In this document: positions 6,817-36,872 of the stretch, piece by piece
Layout of the letters: the number at the start of each line of letters is the position of its first letter
Position numbering within the stretch: the stretch's first letter is position 1
Source: Alphaproteobacteria bacterium
Lineage (GTDB): Bacteria > Pseudomonadota > Alphaproteobacteria > UBA7879 > VGCX01
Direction: 5' to 3'
NCBI GenBank assembly: GCA_016869935.1
Contig: VGCX01000003.1
Coordinates: 1 to 40,302, forward strand
Length of the DNA: 40,302 nucleotides
Position numbers and translations under genes: made by a program
The notes under the pieces: model-generated
Told to the model about the DNA's origin: nothing
Seen by the model: the letters and a program-made list of their open reading frames with translations, nothing else
The model's database searches: none

Positions 6817-7221
6817 TTAAGATAGCAAATAATCAAAATTAGGTTTTTCTTCAAAAAACCACTGAGCAAGGGAAAGCTCTTTTTTTGAACCAACAGTTAG
6901 AACAAGACGCTTGTTCTCGCTAATAAGCACCATAGATTCACAAAACGTAGCGCCACTTTCTTGATGGATAAGATTGATGATCTTTTGTCCAAATAAAAAT
7001 CTTTCCCAGCGATAGAAGCCAAGAACGGGTTGATCCAAAATAAGAGTTGGATCATTGTTGTAAAGACCTTTTTCAAGGTAAGCATTCATGAAAGAAGGAG
7101 GGGCGATAAACTTTAAAATGTTAGGCCCTTCTAAAACAAGGATGGATAGAAAAACAACCCCTTTTGGTTGAAGGGTCTTTAGAAATACATCTTCCGGATT
7201 TACTGCAATTTTTGTATTCAT
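6817..7221 (-). CDS. Probable stand-alone LuxR-type autoinducer-binding domain protein (no HTH)
   Basis: F44-Y48-D57-P58-W72 has the same spacing as TraR W57-Y61-D70-P71-W85. The 134-aa ORF ends about 10 nt before fumC. Confidence 0.6.
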   Translation of the reverse strand: MNTKIAVNPEDVFLKTLQPKGVVFLSILVLEGPNILKFIAPPSFMNAYLEKGLYNNDPTLILDQPVLGFYRWERFLFGQKIINLIHQESGATFCESMVLISENKRLVLTVGSKKELSLAQWFFEEKPNFDYLLS

Positions 7222-7224
7222 CGT

Positions 7225-8643
7225 CTAGGCACTTTCTCTTAGAGTATCGATAGCGCTTTGTATGGGAGGAACCATATAAGAAGGAAGGGGTGCCTCAAAT
7301 AAAGATAAGATCGTTGGGGCAGCCGCAATAGATTCAACGATTGGTCTTTTTGTAAAGGCGGGAAGTCCCTTTTTATAAATAATCATAGTGCCTTCAGGTT
7401 GGTGATACCCTGTTCCTGGATCTCGAGCTTCTACAGAAATACCTAAATCTTCAAAGGATATTTTTTCTTTTTTCTGATCACGGTAAAGACCTCCAGACCT
7501 TACAAGAGCGGCGGTTGTTTGTAGGTTAATATTGAGGGTCAATCCAGATTTTTTGAATCCAAAAACGGGTGTTCCATTCGAATCTGTTAAGTTTAAAACG
7601 GCGTTTTGGAATACCTTCAGATCATCCGATGATTCAAACTCAAAGGCAAAATCTGGACTCATCGCCATATTATTTTTAATGGGTTTATTAAAGTGAATAG
7701 CCCGATAAAACTTATCCATGTGACGCAGTTGCAATTGGCCCAAGAACTCCCCTCGATCAATTGCCTCTTGCCCCATACTGGAGGCTATCATAAGCGTATA
7801 TTTGTTAGCATCTGCAAATTCTTTAAGCTTTTTAAGTTGACCATCTGCAATCTGCATTGCTCGAAGAATAGCATGCGATCTGAAGTAGTCATGATTTGTC
7901 TTCAGCTTATAATTAAAATCTTCCGGGTAAAGATATTTCCAATACCGATGCATCATACCAGCAACATGGTTTGTAAAAAAAGTCGTATAGGCAGGCTTCT
8001 TTTTTTGTAAAATACTAAAAAAAAGATCAAAAGCAACAGGAGACTGATAAATGGAACGAATATGCTTAAAGTTTTTATTGAGCATCTCACGAATAAGTTG
8101 TCTTACAAGAAGTAAAATTGTTTTTATTGTAAGGCCATTTTGAATCATTTGAAAAAGATCTCTAAGGGATCCTAGACTTAAAAAAACGCCTTGAGCAACA
8201 ACGCCCCCATCCCTTTTTGTTTGTGCAAGATTAACTCGCTGAAAACACTCTAGAGCATGCGGCAACGTTTGTGGCGTTTTTGCAAAGGTATCAGAAATAT
8301 AAAAAGAGTAATTACCTGTGGTTGGAATAGGCCAAGACTGAAGGCTTCCAAAAACACCGGTTGAAATACCTTGTTCTGCAATCAGTTCCCAAGTTGGTTT
8401 ATAGTTGGTTACAATTTCCTGATTTAAAAACCGGATATCATGGGTGTCATTGTAAACCCCCCGATGAAAAGTTGGCCACGTCGTCCACGGATGCAGTTCA
8501 CCTGAATCTTTAGTATAGGTTTTATAATGCAATGATTCTTTTAACAAAGAAGCCAAGGTAGAGGTTGGATACTTTTCAACAAACGTATCAACAACGCGCC
8601 AGGGAACTTCATTTAGCTCATAAAGAATTATTTTAGACATCAA
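7225..8643 (-). CDS. Alkaline phosphatase/nucleotide pyrophosphatase superfamily-like protein
   Basis: ILYELNEVP, HPWTTWPTFHRG, NHVAGMMHRYW, ASSMG, GYHQPEG and AAPTIL occur in the order of the AlkP-superfamily core motifs. Confidence 0.6.
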   Translation of the reverse strand: MMSKIILYELNEVPWRVVDTFVEKYPTSTLASLLKESLHYKTYTKDSGELHPWTTWPTFHRGVYNDTHDIRFLNQEIVTNYKPTWELIAEQGISTGVFGSLQSWPIPTTGNYSFYISDTFAKTPQTLPHALECFQRVNLAQTKRDGGVVAQGVFLSLGSLRDLFQMIQNGLTIKTILLLVRQLIREMLNKNFKHIRSIYQSPVAFDLFFSILQKKKPAYTTFFTNHVAGMMHRYWKYLYPEDFNYKLKTNHDYFRSHAILRAMQIADGQLKKLKEFADANKYTLMIASSMGQEAIDRGEFLGQLQLRHMDKFYRAIHFNKPIKNNMAMSPDFAFEFESSDDLKVFQNAVLNLTDSNGTPVFGFKKSGLTLNINLQTTAALVRSGGLYRDQKKEKISFEDLGISVEARDPGTGYHQPEGTMIIYKKGLPAFTKRPIVESIAAAPTILSLFEAPLPSYMVPPIQSAIDTLRESA

Positions 8644-20295: not shown

Positions 20296-21501
20296 TTAGA
20301 AGTTGATCCGTGTTCCAAGAACAAAGGCAGATCCTTGGTTGCCCTTGCTGGTTGAAGGGTTAGAATCCAAGTAGTCTGTGTTTGCAACATAAGCTCTTCC
20401 ACTTGTTCCTGATGCTAGGTTGATATGATCAACTGGCGCTCTGAACTTGAAGTAGCTCGCCTCTCCATAGAAAGCCAAACCGTCTGCTACTGAATAATCA
20501 ACTGTGAAGGATGAAATATCAGCTTTTGCTTTTCCACTGGTTACAGTTCTTTCTGTTCCTGTGTAGCCCAAAGCCAAGCTTACAGGACCCATACCATAGG
20601 AAACACCAAGGTTAAACCCGTGTGTATTGGTATATCTTGTATCCCGACGCATATAGGACTTGCCGTTATTGAAATATCCGGCACCAAACTGCCAGTTTTC
20701 ATAATCGATCAACGTTCCAAATTGCCATGCTTTCACTGGATTAAGTTGTGTTCCTTGTGACGCTGTACCACGAGGACCTTTTGCTTTTCCAAGAGCTCCA
20801 ACAAGATATACACCAACTGTGTATGGACCAGAATCATTAGTAAAGGACAAACCACCTTCCATGTGGTTCACGGCATAAGGCTTTTCCAAAGCTGCTGACG
20901 CATACGTGCTTTGTGAACGACCTTTTTGTGATGTATCTGGTGTGTAAGATGTTCCTACCTGCCATCCGGAAACTTCTGGAGACATCCAAGTCAACTTCCC
21001 AGAACGTGCAGAACCATCTGTCACATATCCAATGTTTTGACCAAAGTCTACACCGCGTGTTACGTTAAGGATCTTATCAAGGTTTGCATCAAACCCTCCT
21101 GTACCGCCCATAACATCTGTTGCATCATAAAGCATCAAGGAAGAAACACCGTTGGTGTCACCCAACTGGAAATTTCCCATCGCATCAGATCCAAGGTAAG
21201 CATAAGCTTCGGTGAAGCGATCTTTTTCTTTACGGTCGCGACCCATATCTAAAACGGCCATAACACCGTAACTTAAACCATTATTGGCAACACTTCCGGC
21301 ATTAAACGTGATGTTTCCTTGGTTCATAGTTTGAACGCCTTTGTTTGAACGAACACGTTGATTTGTCCCAACCATATAGGCCTTGTAAACACCCGTGATT
21401 TTAACATTAGGGCCCGAAGAACTTGCGGAATCCGCGCCTGCAGAAAGAGCAACGCACGAAACTCCTACCATCATTAAGCTTGTTAATACTTTTTTATACA
21501 T
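20296..21501 (-). CDS. Outer membrane porin (Gram-negative porin family)
   Basis: Sec signal (AGA), amphipathic beta-strands, C-terminal GTRINF, AGGAGA RBS and its own terminator. Confidence 0.9.
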   Translation of the reverse strand: MYKKVLTSLMMVGVSCVALSAGADSASSSGPNVKITGVYKAYMVGTNQRVRSNKGVQTMNQGNITFNAGSVANNGLSYGVMAVLDMGRDRKEKDRFTEAYAYLGSDAMGNFQLGDTNGVSSLMLYDATDVMGGTGGFDANLDKILNVTRGVDFGQNIGYVTDGSARSGKLTWMSPEVSGWQVGTSYTPDTSQKGRSQSTYASAALEKPYAVNHMEGGLSFTNDSGPYTVGVYLVGALGKAKGPRGTASQGTQLNPVKAWQFGTLIDYENWQFGAGYFNNGKSYMRRDTRYTNTHGFNLGVSYGMGPVSLALGYTGTERTVTSGKAKADISSFTVDYSVADGLAFYGEASYFKFRAPVDHINLASGTSGRAYVANTDYLDSNPSTSKGNQGSAFVLGTRINF

Positions 21502-21587: not shown

Positions 21588-21749
21588 CTATTTGACCCCT
21601 TGTTGCCCCAGCGCAACAGACAGGGTTTTAGAACTTGGATATGAACGAGGATACGCACTCTCTTCTTCATAGACCAAATCACCTTTTTTCCCGCACGAGG
21701 CAAGGATGAAAACGCTTAAAAAGAATAAGTTTTTAAGATCAACACGCAT
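21588..21749 (-). CDS. Small lipoprotein, LptM/YifL-like (53 aa; not in the ORF track)
   Basis: MRVDLKNLFFLSVFILASCGKKGDLVYEEESAYPRSYPSSKTLSVALGQQGVK*. Lipobox LASC plus CGxKG; GGAGA RBS overlapping the ubiA stop, 6 nt before the ATG. Confidence 0.8.
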   Translation of the reverse strand: MRVDLKNLFFLSVFILASCGKKGDLVYEEESAYPRSYPSSKTLSVALGQQGVK

Positions 21750-21759
21750 TCATATTCTC

Positions 21760-22653
21760 CTATATTCTTCCAAGAAGGATGGCTCCTAAAACCCAAAACC
21801 CGACCCATTTTTGATTTCTAAAAAGAGCCAAAAGATTTTGCTTGTCATTTGAGTTTAAAAACCAAACCTGATAAATAAACCAACTATAAAGACTTATAAG
21901 GATTCCATAATAAATTTTTGTATATTCATTATATACACCTATGCTTATAAGCAAAAAAATCATGACAGAAAAACAGCCAAGAAGAAATGGTTTTAATTGA
22001 TCTTTAAAAAGAAGGGCTGTTGATTTTAAACCTAGCCCTTCATCTTCTTCTTTATCTTGATAGCCATAAACCGTATCATACCCAAGGGTCCAAAAAATGC
22101 CTGCCCCATATAACAGTAAAGGCTCAAGAGAAAGAGCCCCTTTTCCATCCACCCAAGCCATTAGAATCCCGCCATTAAAAACGAGTCCTAAAAAAAGCTG
22201 AGGCCAATAAGTCCAGCGCTTCATAAAAGGATAAAGAATAACTAAGGGCAAAAAAAAGAAACCCATTAAAATCGTTATTTTTTTTAATTGAAGAAGAATT
22301 AAAAATGCACCTCCCAGAAGCAACACCAGAAAGGACAACGCCTGATGTTTAGTTAAGGCACCTGCTGCCAGAGGTCTTGTTTTTGTACGCTCCACTTTTT
22401 GATCAAAGGATTGATCGGCAAGGTCATTAATAACACACCCAGCGCTACGCATAAAAATAGATCCCCATAAAAAAAAGAATACCGTCATCCAAGACCAGGT
22501 TTCACTAAGCCCAAAGGACCAAAGACACGGCAAAAACAGCAACCAGAATCCAATAGGACGATCAAGGCGCGCCAAATACAAATAAGGACGAAAAAAGGGA
22601 GGGAGAGACTCAATCCATGAAACCCTTCTTATGTCGGTATGGGGATGATACAT
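21760..22653 (-). CDS. ubiA: 4-hydroxybenzoate polyprenyltransferase
   Basis: RLDRPIG, NDLADQSFDQKVERTKTRPLA and YDTVYGYQDKEED. Confidence 0.95.
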   Translation of the reverse strand: MYHPHTDIRRVSWIESLPPFFRPYLYLARLDRPIGFWLLFLPCLWSFGLSETWSWMTVFFFLWGSIFMRSAGCVINDLADQSFDQKVERTKTRPLAAGALTKHQALSFLVLLLGGAFLILLQLKKITILMGFFFLPLVILYPFMKRWTYWPQLFLGLVFNGGILMAWVDGKGALSLEPLLLYGAGIFWTLGYDTVYGYQDKEEDEGLGLKSTALLFKDQLKPFLLGCFSVMIFLLISIGVYNEYTKIYYGILISLYSWFIYQVWFLNSNDKQNLLALFRNQKWVGFWVLGAILLGRI

Positions 22654-22697
22654 AATTATGGCTATTTTTTGTTTCTATCATTAAAGTTGAAAGTATT

Positions 22698-23405
22698 ATG
22701 AAAGATATTACAAAAATGCCAAGACTTTTTATCCAGAACATCCTAAGTCTTGGAAAGACGATTGCCCTTACAAAAGAACAGTCCCACTATATTCGAAATG
22801 TTTTGCGCCTAACCATGGGCGACTTTATAAGAGTATTTAATGGGAAAGACGGAGAATTTCTTTCCTCTCTGACAAAGAGTGATAAGATGTGCGAGATCAC
22901 GGTACAAAACCTTCTAAAACCCCAAACCATTTCAAAAGGTCCATGGCTTTTCTTTTCACCCATAAAAAAAGATCGCCTGAGTTTTTTAATTGAAAAAGCT
23001 GTTGAGTTGGGCGTTCAAAAACTAATTCCTGTCATAACGGAACGAACCATCGTCAGAACCTTTAATATTGAAAAGGCTCATTTAAGCATTATTGAAGCCT
23101 CTGAACAATGTGAACGACTGGATGTCCCAGAGATTTTACCCTTCATCACGCTCAAGGATATTTTCAAAACGCTAAAAGAACCTCAACGCCTTTATTTTTG
23201 TAAGGAACGAAGCGATGCGCCTCCCCTTCGATCCTTATCAATTTCACCAGATTCTGGCATCTTGATTGGTCCAGAGGGAGGATTTGCTGATACAGAAATT
23301 GCTTTTCTGGAATCTAGCCCTCAGACCCAGGCCGTATCCTTGGGTGATCGGATCTTAAGAGCCGAAACCGCAGCAATCTATGCCTTGAGTCAAATCTCTT
23401 CCTAA
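22698..23405 (+). CDS. rsmE: 16S rRNA m3U1498 methyltransferase
   Basis: HYIRNVLR, EKAVELGV, EASEQC, IGPEGG and LGDRILRAETA. Confidence 0.96.
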   Translation: MKDITKMPRLFIQNILSLGKTIALTKEQSHYIRNVLRLTMGDFIRVFNGKDGEFLSSLTKSDKMCEITVQNLLKPQTISKGPWLFFSPIKKDRLSFLIEKAVELGVQKLIPVITERTIVRTFNIEKAHLSIIEASEQCERLDVPEILPFITLKDIFKTLKEPQRLYFCKERSDAPPLRSLSISPDSGILIGPEGGFADTEIAFLESSPQTQAVSLGDRILRAETAAIYALSQISS

Positions 23406-23408
23406 AGA

Positions 23409-23437
23409 TTGCCTTTTAACCCTTCCGGTGCCATACT
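23409..23437 (+). promoter_or_regulatory. Putative sigma70 promoter of the small peptide gene
   Basis: TTGCCT-17 nt-CATACT, 36 nt upstream of the ATG at 23474. Confidence 0.6.
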
Positions 23438-23473
23438 AAGACATAACGATAATTATTCTTGGAGGATTTAATC

Positions 23474-23605
23474 ATGAAAAAAGTATTTGCTGTTCTTTTA
23501 GGTATGTTGACAACGTATGGGTTTGTCGCATCTGCTGATTTTGTGGATCCTGTTCCAAACAGCGGTCAAGTTGTAAAGGGTGTTTGGGTTCCAAATCAAC
23601 GTTAA
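23474..23605 (+). CDS. Small exported prepeptide, 43 aa (not in the ORF track)
   Basis: MKKVFAVLLGMLTTYGFVASA|DFVDPVPNSGQVVKGVWVPNQR*. GGAGGA RBS at 23461, Sec-type signal ending in A-S-A, flanked by a promoter and a terminator. Confidence 0.8.
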   Translation: MKKVFAVLLGMLTTYGFVASADFVDPVPNSGQVVKGVWVPNQR

Positions 23606-23621
23606 TTTGAATTTTGCCTTT

Positions 23622-23659
23622 AATGCCTAAGATGAAAGTCTTAGGCATTTGTTATTTTT
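23622..23659 (+). terminator. Intrinsic terminator after the small peptide gene
   Basis: AATGCCTAAGAT-GAAA-GTCTTAGGCATT 12-bp stem (one U-G pair) followed by TGTTATTTTT. Confidence 0.8.
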
Positions 23660-23730
23660 AACTTCCGATTCTTTGATTTTTGTATTATGGTGTCTTTCTA
23701 TTAAATTGTGATTTTTAGGCACAGAAATAA

Positions 23731-24573
23731 ATGAATAAAATTTTTTCTTTATTACGACTGAATCTAATAGTTCTCTCTTTGGGGATATTAACCAGCTGTG
23801 GATCTTCGAAAGATGAAAAATTTGAGGAAAAAAGCCCCGAAGACCTTTATACAAGGGCCGATAAACTTTTAGAAAAAGGCGAAAATAAAAAAGCAGCCGT
23901 TGCCTTTGAAGAAGTCGTTCGTCAACATCCTTATTCAAAATGGGCAACTTCTGCCCAAATTATGGCTGCTTATGCGTATTATAAGGGTCAGGCTTTTGAA
24001 GATGCTCTCGCCAATATTGATAGCTTCCTTCAAATGCACCCAGGCAGCGAATACGTTCCCTATGCCTATTTCTTAAAAGGACTTTGTTACTATGTTCAGG
24101 TTTCCGACACAGAGCGGGATCAGTCCTCAACAGAACAGGCTCTTTCGATCTTTTTAGAACTGATTAAACGATTCCCAACAAGCGCCTACTCTAAAGATGC
24201 TCGATTCAAAATCGATCTTTTGAGAGACTATATTGCTGGAAAAAATATGGAAGTGGGTCGGTTTTACCTTTCTCAAAAACAATACATAGCAGCCCTTAAT
24301 CGTTTTCAAAATACAGTTAAAAATTTTGAAGGAACAACGCACATACCAGAGGCCCTGTATCGGTTGGTTGAAACCTATTTGATTCTGGGAATTGTTCCAG
24401 AAGCTCAAAGAACAGCGCGTGTTCTCGGACACAATTATCCCGATAGCTCTTGGTATAAAGAAGCGTATCAGCTTTTAGAGAACAAGCAAATGCTTCCTTC
24501 AGCAGACTCTTCTATGAAAATTACAAAACAATGGGAGCAGCAGCCCAATGCTGCAAAGCATAACCGCCTCTAA
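23731..24573 (+). CDS. bamD: Outer membrane protein assembly factor BamD
   Basis: Lipobox LTSC, TPRs, RDQ, AALNRF and EALYRLVE; precedes recN-ligA. Confidence 0.95.
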   Translation: MNKIFSLLRLNLIVLSLGILTSCGSSKDEKFEEKSPEDLYTRADKLLEKGENKKAAVAFEEVVRQHPYSKWATSAQIMAAYAYYKGQAFEDALANIDSFLQMHPGSEYVPYAYFLKGLCYYVQVSDTERDQSSTEQALSIFLELIKRFPTSAYSKDARFKIDLLRDYIAGKNMEVGRFYLSQKQYIAALNRFQNTVKNFEGTTHIPEALYRLVETYLILGIVPEAQRTARVLGHNYPDSSWYKEAYQLLENKQMLPSADSSMKITKQWEQQPNAAKHNRL

Positions 24574-26197
24574 TATCGCTGTTGTCAGCCACATTCACGT
24601 CGATCTTTGTTCTGGCCTTAATGTTTTTACAGGAGAGACAGGCGCAGGGAAGTCTGTTCTTCTTGATGCCCTTGCCTTTGGCCTTGGGTCCAGAGCCCAA
24701 ACAACCCTTATTCGAGAAGGGGCTCATGAAGCTTCTGTTACTCTTGTTTTTGAATTAATCCCTCCCTACACTTTTTTAGAGGATTTGCATATTCCTATAG
24801 AGGACAACACCCTTATCATAAGAAGGTTTATGACAAAAGATGGGAAAGGAAAGTGTTTTATCAATGATACTGCAACCACCGTTTCTAGCCTTAAAACCCT
24901 TGGCGAGTCGTTGATCGAAATTCACGGTCAATTTGATCGACTTTTATTGCCAACCCACCATCGAATGGCTCTAGATTCCTTTGGGGACTTGGAACCTTTA
25001 TCAAAAGAAGTCCAAGAAACCTATGAAAAATGGAAAAAAGCAGAGCGCGATCTTTTTCAAACAAAACAGATTCTTCAAACCCAACTAGAAAACAAAGAGT
25101 ATACGGAATTTTGCGCACAAGAATTGCAACAGTTTAATCCTCAACCTAAAGAAGAAGAGACCCTGGTCCAACAGCGATCTTTAGTTTTGCATAAAGAAAA
25201 AATTCAATCCGCCTTAAAAAATGCCCTTCGAGAACTTCAAGAAAAAGCCCCTGTAGAATCTATTTTTAAAAATACATATCGATTTTTGCAACAAGGCAAC
25301 GTTGATGGACAACTATCCCTATTGATAGAACGGACAGATCTTCTGTTGGTTGAAATTCAAGAATTTATGAGCGAACTGGAGCAAGCGGGTCAAGAATTTG
25401 AGGAACAAAACCAGGAACTATCTTTGGAATTTCTTGAGCAACGGTTATTTTCTTTAAGGGCTCTTGCAAAAAAACATCGATGCAGTCCCGATGATTTGCC
25501 AGATTTTTTGCTGCAGTTACAAGTAAACTTAGATGCCATAAGTAACAGTGATGCCTCCGTAAAAGCCCTTGAAAAGGAAGCCGATCTTTGTAAATTAACT
25601 TACAAAAACAAAGCAACAGATCTTAGCGCAAAAAGAAAAGAAGTAGCCCATTATTTAGAAAAAGTAATTGCACAAGAACTTCCCCCTTTAAAGCTTCAAG
25701 CACATCTTAAGGTGAATTTTCATTCTATTCCTGAAGATCAATGGTCAGAGCACGGTATGGAAACGATTGAATTTTTTGTCTCAACGAATCCGGGGGATCC
25801 TTTTGGGCCTCTTTCCAAAATTGCCTCTGGTGGTGAATTATCAAGAATTATGCTGGCTTTAAAAGTTGTCTTAAATCAAAAAAATCAAGTCCCAACCCTG
25901 ATCTTTGATGAAATAGATACAGGAACAGGGGGATCTGTCGCAGATGCTATGGGAAAAAGACTTCATGGTCTTGCAAAAAATGTCCAAGTGCTTGCTGTAA
26001 CTCACAGTCCTCAGGTAGCCTCTTATGGAGATCATCATTACTTTGTTTCAAAGGCTCTTGAAGAGGGGCGGATGAAAACAACAATTGAAGAATTAAGGGA
26101 TCATTCCCAAAAGGTAGAAGAAATTGCTCGTATGCTTTCAGGATCTAGCATTACACCTCAAGCTAAAGCTGCTGCAGAAGAACTATTAAAGGATTGA
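24548..26197 (+). CDS. recN: DNA repair protein RecN
   Basis: TGETGAGKS, EIHGQ, ASGGELSR, FDEIDTG and EIARMLSG. Confidence 0.97.
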   Translation: MLQSITASNIAVVSHIHVDLCSGLNVFTGETGAGKSVLLDALAFGLGSRAQTTLIREGAHEASVTLVFELIPPYTFLEDLHIPIEDNTLIIRRFMTKDGKGKCFINDTATTVSSLKTLGESLIEIHGQFDRLLLPTHHRMALDSFGDLEPLSKEVQETYEKWKKAERDLFQTKQILQTQLENKEYTEFCAQELQQFNPQPKEEETLVQQRSLVLHKEKIQSALKNALRELQEKAPVESIFKNTYRFLQQGNVDGQLSLLIERTDLLLVEIQEFMSELEQAGQEFEEQNQELSLEFLEQRLFSLRALAKKHRCSPDDLPDFLLQLQVNLDAISNSDASVKALEKEADLCKLTYKNKATDLSAKRKEVAHYLEKVIAQELPPLKLQAHLKVNFHSIPEDQWSEHGMETIEFFVSTNPGDPFGPLSKIASGGELSRIMLALKVVLNQKNQVPTLIFDEIDTGTGGSVADAMGKRLHGLAKNVQVLAVTHSPQVASYGDHHYFVSKALEEGRMKTTIEELRDHSQKVEEIARMLSGSSITPQAKAAAEELLKD

Positions 26198-36053: not shown

Positions 36054-36872
36054 GTGCGTTACTTATATTTGATACTTATAATTATCACTAATGCATCTTG
36101 CTCTCATGTCAAACAATCTGACAAGGCACTTTTAAAGCATTTACAGAATTTTAATCCTGAGGGTATTAAAAAAGAACTATCTAGAGACATTCATCCAGGG
36201 CAAGAAGGTGAATTTTTTCTAACATTTTCTTTTTTTGAGGCTTGCAGCAATGGTGATCTTAATCGCGTAAAAGAGCTTCTAGAGGCTGGATCAAATATTC
36301 ACTCTGTTACAGCACTAGGAAAAACGGCCCTTCATTTAGCCTGCGAATCAAAAAGATCTTCCACAGAGCTTGTCAAATTTTTAATTAATCATGGATTAGA
36401 TATTAACGGAAACTTTAAAACACATTTAAAAATAGAAAAATTTTGCTGGAGCCCTCTCATGATTGCATGCGTACATAGAAATGTAGATATTGCTAGGGTC
36501 TTAATAGAAAAAGGCGCAATGATCGACGAAAAAGATGCTGGAGGAGATACACCTCTATTGAAAGCAAGCTTCTATGGATCCGTTAAAATTGTAGAGGAGC
36601 TCTTAAAAAATGGTGCTAACATTAAAGCAATCAATAACGAAGGGAATACAGCCTTACACGAAGCCTTTTTGGGATATATGACTAAAAACACCCTTTTCTC
36701 TTCATCTAAAGATTCTTATACCGAAGAAGACTTTGAAGAAATTATGAATCTTTTAAACCATTATGGTATTGATTTCTATGCACGAAACAATCAAGGGAAA
36801 ACAATTCAAGATCTAATACAAGATTTCAAAACTAACGTCGCCCAAACAGGCGCTCTAAATCCTGCAATTTAA
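36054..36872 (+). CDS. Ankyrin-repeat protein with signal/lipoprotein-like N-terminus
   Basis: Repeats GKTALHLAC, WSPLMIAC, GDTPLLKAS and GNTALHEA; N-terminus MRYLYLILIIITNASC. Confidence 0.9.
   Translation: MRYLYLILIIITNASCSHVKQSDKALLKHLQNFNPEGIKKELSRDIHPGQEGEFFLTFSFFEACSNGDLNRVKELLEAGSNIHSVTALGKTALHLACESKRSSTELVKFLINHGLDINGNFKTHLKIEKFCWSPLMIACVHRNVDIARVLIEKGAMIDEKDAGGDTPLLKASFYGSVKIVEELLKNGANIKAINNEGNTALHEAFLGYMTKNTLFSSSKDSYTEEDFEEIMNLLNHYGIDFYARNNQGKTIQDLIQDFKTNVAQTGALNPAI

Follow-up and report, generated by a model that had tools for sequence, protein, structure and literature searches.

A 43-codon open reading frame (ORF) lies between rsmE and bamD on a 40,302-nucleotide stretch of an alphaproteobacterial genome (contig VGCX01000003.1, assembly GCA_016869935.1; the whole stretch is hereafter called the window), and the locus raises the question of whether so short a frame is a gene and, if so, what its product does in a place next to an envelope-biogenesis gene. 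A sequence-only reading of the same DNA had taken positions 23409-23659 for a self-contained transcription unit that encodes a tiny exported peptide. We favour a related explanation, in which the locus is a gene with a terminator of its own, whose product is a mini-protein exported through Sec that works in the periplasm by binding a partner, and to this statement as a whole we give a probability of roughly 0.55.

Conservation of the reading frame

The ORF was found at 23474-23605 on the forward strand, including the TAA stop codon at 23603-23605, with the 43 codons that the sequence-only reading had given it, and its product is the pre-peptide MKKVF...VPNQR. The peptide is identical to database cluster P0001, and among the 5.8 billion proteins searched with it the sole other match was P0002, a metagenomic protein of the same length (43 amino acids, aa), 81% identical, in which P26, G31, G36 and W38 are kept. 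With the single 43-aa peptide as query, tblastn returned nothing credible from 40 related genomes. Both genomes of the sister genus g2 (G002 and G003) have a 55-codon ORF upstream of bamD, with a signal peptide and with a mature part that has G-x-V-V-x-G-x-W-V-x-N in common with the window peptide. A profile search of 1.84 billion representatives gave six short proteins (43-58 aa, E = 1e-4 to 2.7e-28), two of which were already in the query alignment, and the profile search of 5.8 billion proteins gave 13 clusters at E <= 0.01. When the genomes of the order were searched in six frames, nine of the 18 species genomes matched, all at E <= 3.6e-9 and down to 1e-25 per genome; the carriers are three of the four genomes of family f1 and six of the nine of family f3, and none of the five of family f2. 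In its own genome the window peptide matched the family profile at E = 4.7e-16 and is present in a single copy, the two other matches there (E = 0.10 and 0.15) covering the signal peptide only.

The family as we align it has 17 members, namely P0001-P0006, P0011, P0014-P0019 and four genomic ORFs. Kinship apart from the signal peptide was checked with a mature-only profile built from 15 members, P0001 and P0002 being left out, on which the 22 mature residues of the window peptide scored 22.3 bits, a value that none of 2000 shuffles reached (shuffle maximum 11.5). The sequence-only reading had named much longer homologues as the sign of a truncated remnant; the relatives proved to be 53-66 aa long, and the long proteins among the first profile matches vanish when the signal peptide is taken out of the profile. 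These long proteins (P0007-P0010, P0012 and P0013) were rejected as homologues because their matches lay on the signal-peptide half of the profile: P0007, P0009, P0010 and P0013 were lost with the mature-only profile, and P0008 and P0012 dropped to at most 12.9 bits per stretch. The immunoglobulin-like repeat of the actinobacterial-type P0007 and P0013, which is weakly Y_Y_Y-like (P0013 against Pfam Y_Y_Y, E = 2e-4, below the Pfam cut-off), has the motif Y-x-[FL]-x(3-4)-P-x(2-4)-G-x(1-5)-W in common with the peptide family.

Outside the order the family faded quickly. In a class sample of 401 genomes the full-length matches came only from the four that belong to this order, and the 383 sampled genomes that belong to its other orders yielded no credible relative. 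Five weak matches from other orders (E = 0.0014-0.0062) were set aside, four of them spanning only the first 22-35 of the 51 profile positions, mostly signal peptide, and the fifth (G220) starting at a stop codon and having no Trp. The curated collections agreed with the sequence-only reading, which had recognised no family for the peptide: Pfam gave no match at E <= 1, NCBIfam gave two that are not credible (best E = 0.02 and 0.064), and the best PHROG match (E = 0.027) lay on the signal-peptide part. A tblastn search against phages gave one row (E = 5), the ESM Atlas gave no usable match, and full-text searching, including by peptide motifs, found nothing about the peptide in the part of the literature that such searching reaches. 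Judged by its sequences, this is an unannotated and unnamed family confined to one order of small-genome freshwater alphaproteobacteria, although its general kind, the exported mini-proteins, is well known.

Selection on the relatives points the same way. In five pairs of relatives the nonsynonymous proportion of differences (pN) was 0.22-0.37 against a synonymous proportion (pS) of 0.62-0.99, and the ratio of the corresponding rates (dN/dS) was 0.11, 0.25 and 0.33 in three pairs, dS being saturated in the other two; by these sequence comparisons the relatives are under purifying selection. Between genera, the peptides are 33-35% identical against 62-63% for the BamD proteins of the same genomes. 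A chance ORF in an intergenic spacer, for which the short length speaks, is barely credible here, since the protein is conserved across two families with the per-genome E values given above and pN is well below pS. Because it is conserved as a protein the ORF stands above chance, and we regard it as very probably a real gene.

Expression signals

The transcription unit is well defined at the ribosome-binding site and the 3' end, whereas its 5' end is open. A Shine-Dalgarno sequence GGAGGA, placed by the sequence-only reading 7 nucleotides (nt) before the ATG, was found at 23461-23466 (+), at that distance from the ATG at 23474, and a purine-rich stretch lies within 25 nt of the start in seven of the eight other genomic homologues, G015 having GGGAGAG (read by eye). 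Downstream, the expected 12-bp terminator with a GAAA loop occupies 23622-23659 (+), with a stem of 23622-23633 and 23638-23649 and a T-rich tail TGTTATTTTT at 23650-23659. Its predicted fold has an energy of -17.5 kcal/mol (z = -4.36), which was equalled by none of 200 shuffles, and it is also on the list of the consensus scan; this terminator exceeds chance. In G002, G003, G005 and G014 the homologous gene is likewise followed, as read by eye, by a hairpin rich in GC and then a run of T.

The promoter is a different matter. The letters of the pair TTGCCT-N17-CATACT are present at 23409-23437 (+), with TTGCCT at 23409-23414 and CATACT at 23432-23437, yet its standing as a promoter did not hold: it agrees with the consensus at four plus four of 12 positions, below the 9-of-12 threshold of the scan, and is thus unlisted, and at that threshold the region has four sites against 4.3 expected from shuffles. 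The pair is no better than chance and is kept as a weak candidate. A strain variant (23427 G>A) sits in its spacer. Since the scan found no terminator between rsmE and the peptide ORF, read-through from rsmE is a possible route to transcription of the ORF. The unit is therefore self-contained in part, having its own ribosome-binding site and terminator but a weak promoter and a possible source of transcripts in rsmE.

The region directly before bamD (23660-23730, +) lies outside the peptide unit and marks its boundary. The sequence TTGTATTATGGT occurs there upstream of bamD in the window and also in G001, a relative of the same genus that has no peptide gene, which suggests, as far as upstream sequence can tell, that bamD is transcribed independently of the peptide unit.

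The homologous gene of G002 and of G003 is preceded by a near-consensus promoter, and it too has a ribosome-binding site and a terminator. This promoter (TTGACA-N18-GATAAT, 11 of 12 consensus positions) is conserved between the two genomes, and CCCCTTGACAATAAAC...GAGATAATT is perfectly conserved in the divergent spacer between sodB and the peptide gene (L036 3925-3975, L037 3905-3955); its sequence suggests strong constitutive expression of the peptide in these two genomes. In the upstream regions of family f3 (L039, L050, L042 and L049), G007 and G011 share CCTTGC[CT]C ... CCCTATGCTTA, and G005 and G014 share GCTTGTTT ... GTCACA; by eye, these motifs resemble alphaproteobacterial -35/-10 elements and the TTGCC...CATACT of the window. 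The one metatranscriptome that was compared (X23) had nothing placed on the stretch, a result that says nothing about expression.

Predicted export and architecture of the peptide

The Sec/signal peptidase I (SPase I) type signal that the sequence-only reading had described is present by rule. Codons 1-21 (23474-23536, +) comprise K2 and K3, a hydrophobic core at residues 4-18 (V4-V18) and A19-S20-A21, with a predicted SPase I cut after A21; the window peptide thus has the basic n-region, the hydrophobic h-region of about 10-15 residues and the small uncharged residues at -3 and -1 of such signals. The (-3,-1) rule is the established guide to SPase I sites, and it was applied to the sequence alone. 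In the 17-row alignment (A7, read by eye) the -1 residue is A or S in every member, and all rows have a K/R n-region and a hydrophobic core. A lipoprotein is not indicated: the lipobox [LVI][ASTVI][GAS]C has no place in the Cys-less window peptide, and in the 55-aa relatives the Cys stands three residues past the AxA with D or E at -2, which is not a lipobox. On these features the peptide is probably exported and cleaved.

The predicted mature peptide of 22 aa (codons 22-43, 23537-23602, +) reads DFVDPVPNSGQVVKGVWVPNQR, and across the family the mature part has 22-36 residues. Its core follows the pattern [YF]-x-[LMIV]-x-x-P-x(4-5)-G-x(4-6)-G-x-W, in which Pro, Gly and Trp are the same in all 17 rows and at least 90% of the rows have the turn Gly; in the window these are P26, G31, W38 and G36, so that the window peptide has both the signal peptide and the four core residues by which we define the family. 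The members fall into subtypes. The g2 proteins and their metagenomic kin have [DE]-x-C-P-x3-Y-x-[LM]-x-x-P-x4-G-x4-G-x-W-x-x-N-x-x-A-D-E-x, and the f3 proteins have Y-x-L-[YI]-[SA]-P ... D/N-G-x-W ... C-[AD]-A. Exactly one Cys occurs in the mature part of 15 of the 17 members and none in the window peptide and P0002; the lack of Cys that had been remarked on is true of these two, which form a Cys-less, shortened subgroup, and not of the rest of the family. The repeat of VPN that had been pointed out does occur twice, but it is meaningless, because the second copy is VPS in P0002.

AlphaFold2 predicted for the window peptide a helix at residues 2-14 and strands at 31-34 and 37-40, with a mean predicted local distance difference test score (pLDDT) of 87 over residues 31-40 and 74.4 overall. 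The two strands form a beta-hairpin, GQVV-KG-VWVP (codons 31-40, 23564-23593, +), which holds G31, G36 and W38. For the 55-aa homologue P0003 the signal helix and the same hairpin were predicted (strands 39-42 and 45-48; mean pLDDT 75.4, and 80 and 87 in the blocks over residues 31-50, hairpin included). Across the family the C-terminal half of the mature core is predicted to form such a hairpin, its turn being Asn/Asp/Gly/Lys-Gly and its second strand bearing the invariant Trp.

Small periplasmic proteins exported through Sec and SPase I are a class of diderm proteins familiar from surveys of small ORFs. The window peptide resembles them in its charged n-region, hydrophobic core, AxA site, mature part of fewer than 50 aa, monocistronic gene and lack of an enzymatic domain; it differs from them in having no kinship with a curated family, a mature part that is unusually short at 22 aa, and a distribution within one order.

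Proposed function

In the explanation that we favour, SPase I would cut the 43-aa precursor after Ala21 and release the 22-aa peptide into the periplasm. In a diderm, a Sec signal by itself brings a protein no further than the periplasm, and the size limit of porins lies below 2.4 kDa, the mass of the peptide. Being above that limit, and with no gene for an outer-membrane exporter seen next to its own in the nine carrier genomes (by Pfam scan in the window and G002, from ORF lists in the other seven), the peptide would probably stay in the periplasm. There it may serve as a small module whose hairpin binds either another protein or further copies of the peptide. Periplasmic binding as the mode of action is a tentative proposal, to which we would give somewhat less than even odds. 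Compared with its relatives, the window copy has lost about eight residues from just behind the predicted cut, together with the one Cys and the acidic tail.

Several observations weigh against this explanation. The peptide gene is absent from G001, the sole same-genus relative (98% complete, BamD 75% identical), which keeps rsmE-bamD-recN with a gap of 209 nt that holds no similar ORF and is not alignable with the 325-nt gap of the window. The gene is thus dispensable in a close relative, because G001 does without it, and it has been lost at least once. Conservation in close relatives had been set as a test of the ORF, and the outcome is divided, with the gene missing from G001 and kept in another genus and another family. 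The window and P0002 form is without the roughly eight post-cleavage residues, the Cys and the tail, and could be on its way out. The purifying selection reported above was measured on relatives and not on the 43-aa form (P0001/P0002), for which a metagenome scan for P0002 DNA found only a contig of the same species (L038, 99.74% identical). The predicted TM-score was low (pTM 0.28 for the window peptide and 0.30 for P0003) and the alignments behind the models were shallow (10 and 17 rows). Moreover, we infer periplasmic residence and binding from the size of the peptide and the lack of nearby exporters.

Strain variation adds little. In three strain contigs (95-99% alike) none of the 40 listed variable places fell within the 132-nt ORF and no indel was found there, with two listed places in 23406-23473 and one at 23616; 11 further variable places, about 10 of them (by our own count) from run X11, lie outside the listing. 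With strains diverged by only about 1.1-1.4%, the ORF would be expected to hold about 2.8 of the listed sites. The support that strain variation gives to the gene is weak, because divergence is low, few sites are expected and 11 places are outside the listing.

The same losses raise the possibility that the 43-aa form is a functionless, truncated leftover of the 55-aa gene. Its mature part is shorter at both ends, the Cys is gone, the gene is already missing from G001, and the promoter is weak beside that of g2 (8 against 11 of 12 consensus positions). We consider such decay quite unlikely, since P0002, which is 81% identical and represents another lineage, agrees with it in length (43 aa) and in the four core residues, the ribosome-binding site and terminator are intact, and the listed strain variants and indels all lie outside the ORF. 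By its sequence, the window form is the shortest member of the family, a shortened derivative that keeps all four core residues.

The finding adds to the poorly charted small exported bacterial proteins a well-delimited family with a four-residue signature and a predicted hairpin, the smallest mature product of which has 22 residues. The family occurs in uncultured alphaproteobacteria of fresh water, whose genomes measure 0.9-1.5 Mb and have retained mostly housekeeping genes. Because these genomes are small and mostly housekeeping and the peptide gene is retained in them under purifying selection, a specific role in the envelope is likely. The peptides are short enough for chemical synthesis, so that structure, oligomeric state and partners are testable without cultivation.

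Comparison with the T4 foldon

Docking on copies of the peptide itself brings to mind the foldon, the C-terminal domain of T4 fibritin (Wac), whose family we take to be the fibritin C-terminal family of Pfam. Three exported hairpins would pack their Trp residues into a tiny trimer as the foldon does. With the T4 Wac foldon taken from AF158101 (92129-93592), hhalign placed the family core exactly on the foldon over 21-22 columns (33-36% identity, P = 0.004-0.006, probability 6.5-8.4%), the family side of the alignment being NYTLYSPAAGDGSVV-NGAWVA, and in a rerun one of 400 shuffled targets equalled the real score. Family core and foldon alike have a beta-hairpin whose D/N-G turn leads into x-W-V, and the T4 foldon, like the peptide, has about 25-30 residues with an extended, Pro-containing N-terminal part before the hairpin. 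Among the 13 Foldseek rows, seven were confirmed foldon chains, although the foldon is present in only 565 of 177,635 distinct PDB sequences.

The comparison weakens under other tests. The hhalign P-value is post hoc, because the foldon was chosen after the fold search. All Foldseek rows were non-significant (best E = 4.5, TM 0.21-0.47), and their helix-plus-hairpin shape is owed in part to the signal-peptide helix, a segment that the mature peptide would lack. Against the foldon the HMMER mature-only profile scored 0.3 bits, equalled by 232 of 5000 shuffles; a profile search of all PDB sequences gave nothing at E <= 10, and as noted Pfam gave no family at E <= 1, so that no sequence match to the foldon was significant. 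The invariant Gly of the family stands opposite Ala in the foldon, and Wac has, after the hairpin, a hydrophobic tail that the peptide family lacks. A wide search with VIA-align (best Z = 2.5) was dominated by single helices matching the signal peptide and had no foldon row, and is uninformative. The settings differ too, the foldon being the end of a cytoplasmic coiled-coil fibre and the peptide a free-standing, exported product whose trimer is hypothetical. Foldon-like self-assembly is, by this analogy, a long shot, and slightly lower odds still attach to the further idea that such a trimer might clamp or plug an envelope protein that is itself trimeric, for instance a porin. If true, the peptides would be among the smallest autonomous oligomerising proteins with their own bacterial gene.

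Gene order and the neighbourhood of bamD

The window has the order rsmE (22698-23405, +; Pfam RsmE), peptide gene, bamD (23731-24573, +; Pfam BamD/YfiO) and recN (24548-26197, +; Pfam RecN). G002 and G003 have sodB (divergent), peptide gene, bamD and recN; in G005, of family f3, the order is a superoxide dismutase-like ORF (divergent; named by eye from its N-terminus), the peptide gene and a terminase-like ORF, and the flanks in G014 differ from those in G005. In G000 the sodB-type gene is on a different contig. Neighbours were scanned with Pfam in the window and G002, and for the other seven genomes the ORF lists (at least 90-110 aa) were read. None of five f3 homologues (G005, G007, G009, G011 and G014) has bamD within 1.2-1.5 kb on either side, and in G015, also of f3, the peptide gene and bamD are on separate contigs.

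This distribution bears on an envelope role tied to the beta-barrel assembly machinery (BAM), in which the peptide would bind BamD or BamA or mimic the beta-signal of outer-membrane proteins, a candidate role in the sequence-only reading. The gene does lie directly upstream of bamD in three of the nine carriers, which belong to two f1 genera. A BAM link is nevertheless improbable: it is unsupported because the f3 homologues sit elsewhere, rsmE-bamD-recN stands without the peptide gene in G001, and in the window the two genes are set apart by a strong terminator and by an upstream region that belongs to bamD itself. Nor does the C-terminus look like a beta-signal, which has a terminal aromatic residue in a G-x-x-hydrophobic-x-aromatic context, as the window peptide ends in VPNQR and its relatives in an acidic PADEA or similar, while the porin of the window ends in GTRINF, with a C-terminal aromatic residue. 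A co-fold of G002 BamD (residues 18-269, 13-row alignment) with the mature 34-aa G002 peptide (10-row alignment) scored 0.02 against a mark of 0.32, which speaks neither for nor against binding. The adjacency of the peptide gene and bamD is confined to family f1, where inheritance of the gene order explains it better than functional coupling does; eye-catching as the place beside bamD is, it gives no evidence of a BAM function.

The position also recalls SecM, VemP and MifM, the secretion-monitoring leader peptides, which like the peptide gene are small ORFs with an export signal right upstream of an envelope-biogenesis gene. A cis-acting leader of this type would tune bamD through export-dependent translation, and the conserved Gly, Trp and Pro near the C-terminus would fit it. 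We hold this to be very improbable. A leader of the SecM type is conserved and co-transcribed upstream of the gene that it regulates, an arrangement not seen here: a strong intrinsic terminator begins 17 nt past the stop codon (further downstream in G002) and so stands before bamD, and the bamD upstream region is present in G001 where the ORF is not. The f3 copies are elsewhere, the next downstream ORF (at least 110 aa) being on the opposite strand in G007, G009 and G011, a convergent 302-aa ORF in G015 and the terminase-like ORF after the terminator in G005. The peptide also has no recognisable arrest motif, unlike the three leaders.

The ORF lists and scans of the nine carrier genomes bear as well on an extracellular signal, a bacteriocin or a host-directed effector, whose target would be other cells or a eukaryotic host. 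Such a role would suit a small product with a Sec-type export signal from a family that is lineage-restricted, patchy and fast-evolving by the comparison with BamD (33-35% against 62-63%), and an ankyrin-repeat protein encoded in the window hints at host association. However, no exporter, immunity, receptor or modification gene was seen beside the peptide gene in any of the nine genomes, a Sec signal by itself leads to the periplasm only, and the mature peptides, as read from their sequences, are neutral to acidic, unlike cationic antimicrobial hairpins. We consider an action outside the cell unlikely, and the signalling peptide, host effector and protease inhibitor that the sequence-only reading had offered as guesses were not supported. 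Among the explanations weighed, we continue to prefer a periplasmic mini-protein that binds a partner.

Other features of the window

The remaining genes of the window are housekeeping genes by Pfam scan, and a scan of 22600-24000 with Rfam returned nothing relevant. The longest frame of recN overlaps the end of bamD by 26 nt (24548-24573), and the junction is equally tight in G002 and G003. The true start of rsmE may not be the annotated 22698, which is doubtful because a strain from run X9 has three bases missing at 22738-22741, near that start, and several nearby sites vary between strains. Another, unrelated X9 contig of 10.8 kb matched only at 23279-23312 (34 nt within rsmE, four differences, both ends loose), probably as a conserved RsmE motif of a different organism.

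Upstream of rsmE are a porin gene (20296-21501, -; Pfam porin) and a UbiA gene (21760-22653, -; Pfam UbiA), and between them lies another small exported ORF of 53 aa (21588-21749, -) with a lipobox-like ...FILASC followed by GKKGDLVY. Its match to Pfam LptM_cons is weak (E = 0.077, 13.3 bits, under the 27.3-bit cut-off), and from its sequence the product may be a small lipoprotein of the lipopolysaccharide-assembly type. Two neighbouring ORFs of 134 aa (6817-7221, -) and 472 aa (7225-8643, -) have no Pfam family at E <= 0.1. A 272-aa ankyrin-repeat protein (36054-36872, +; Ank_2, E = 2.3e-27) is encoded in housekeeping surroundings of this 1.47-Mb genome and hints at a host-associated lifestyle. 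The organism itself is known from freshwater, lake, wastewater and aquaculture metagenomes only.

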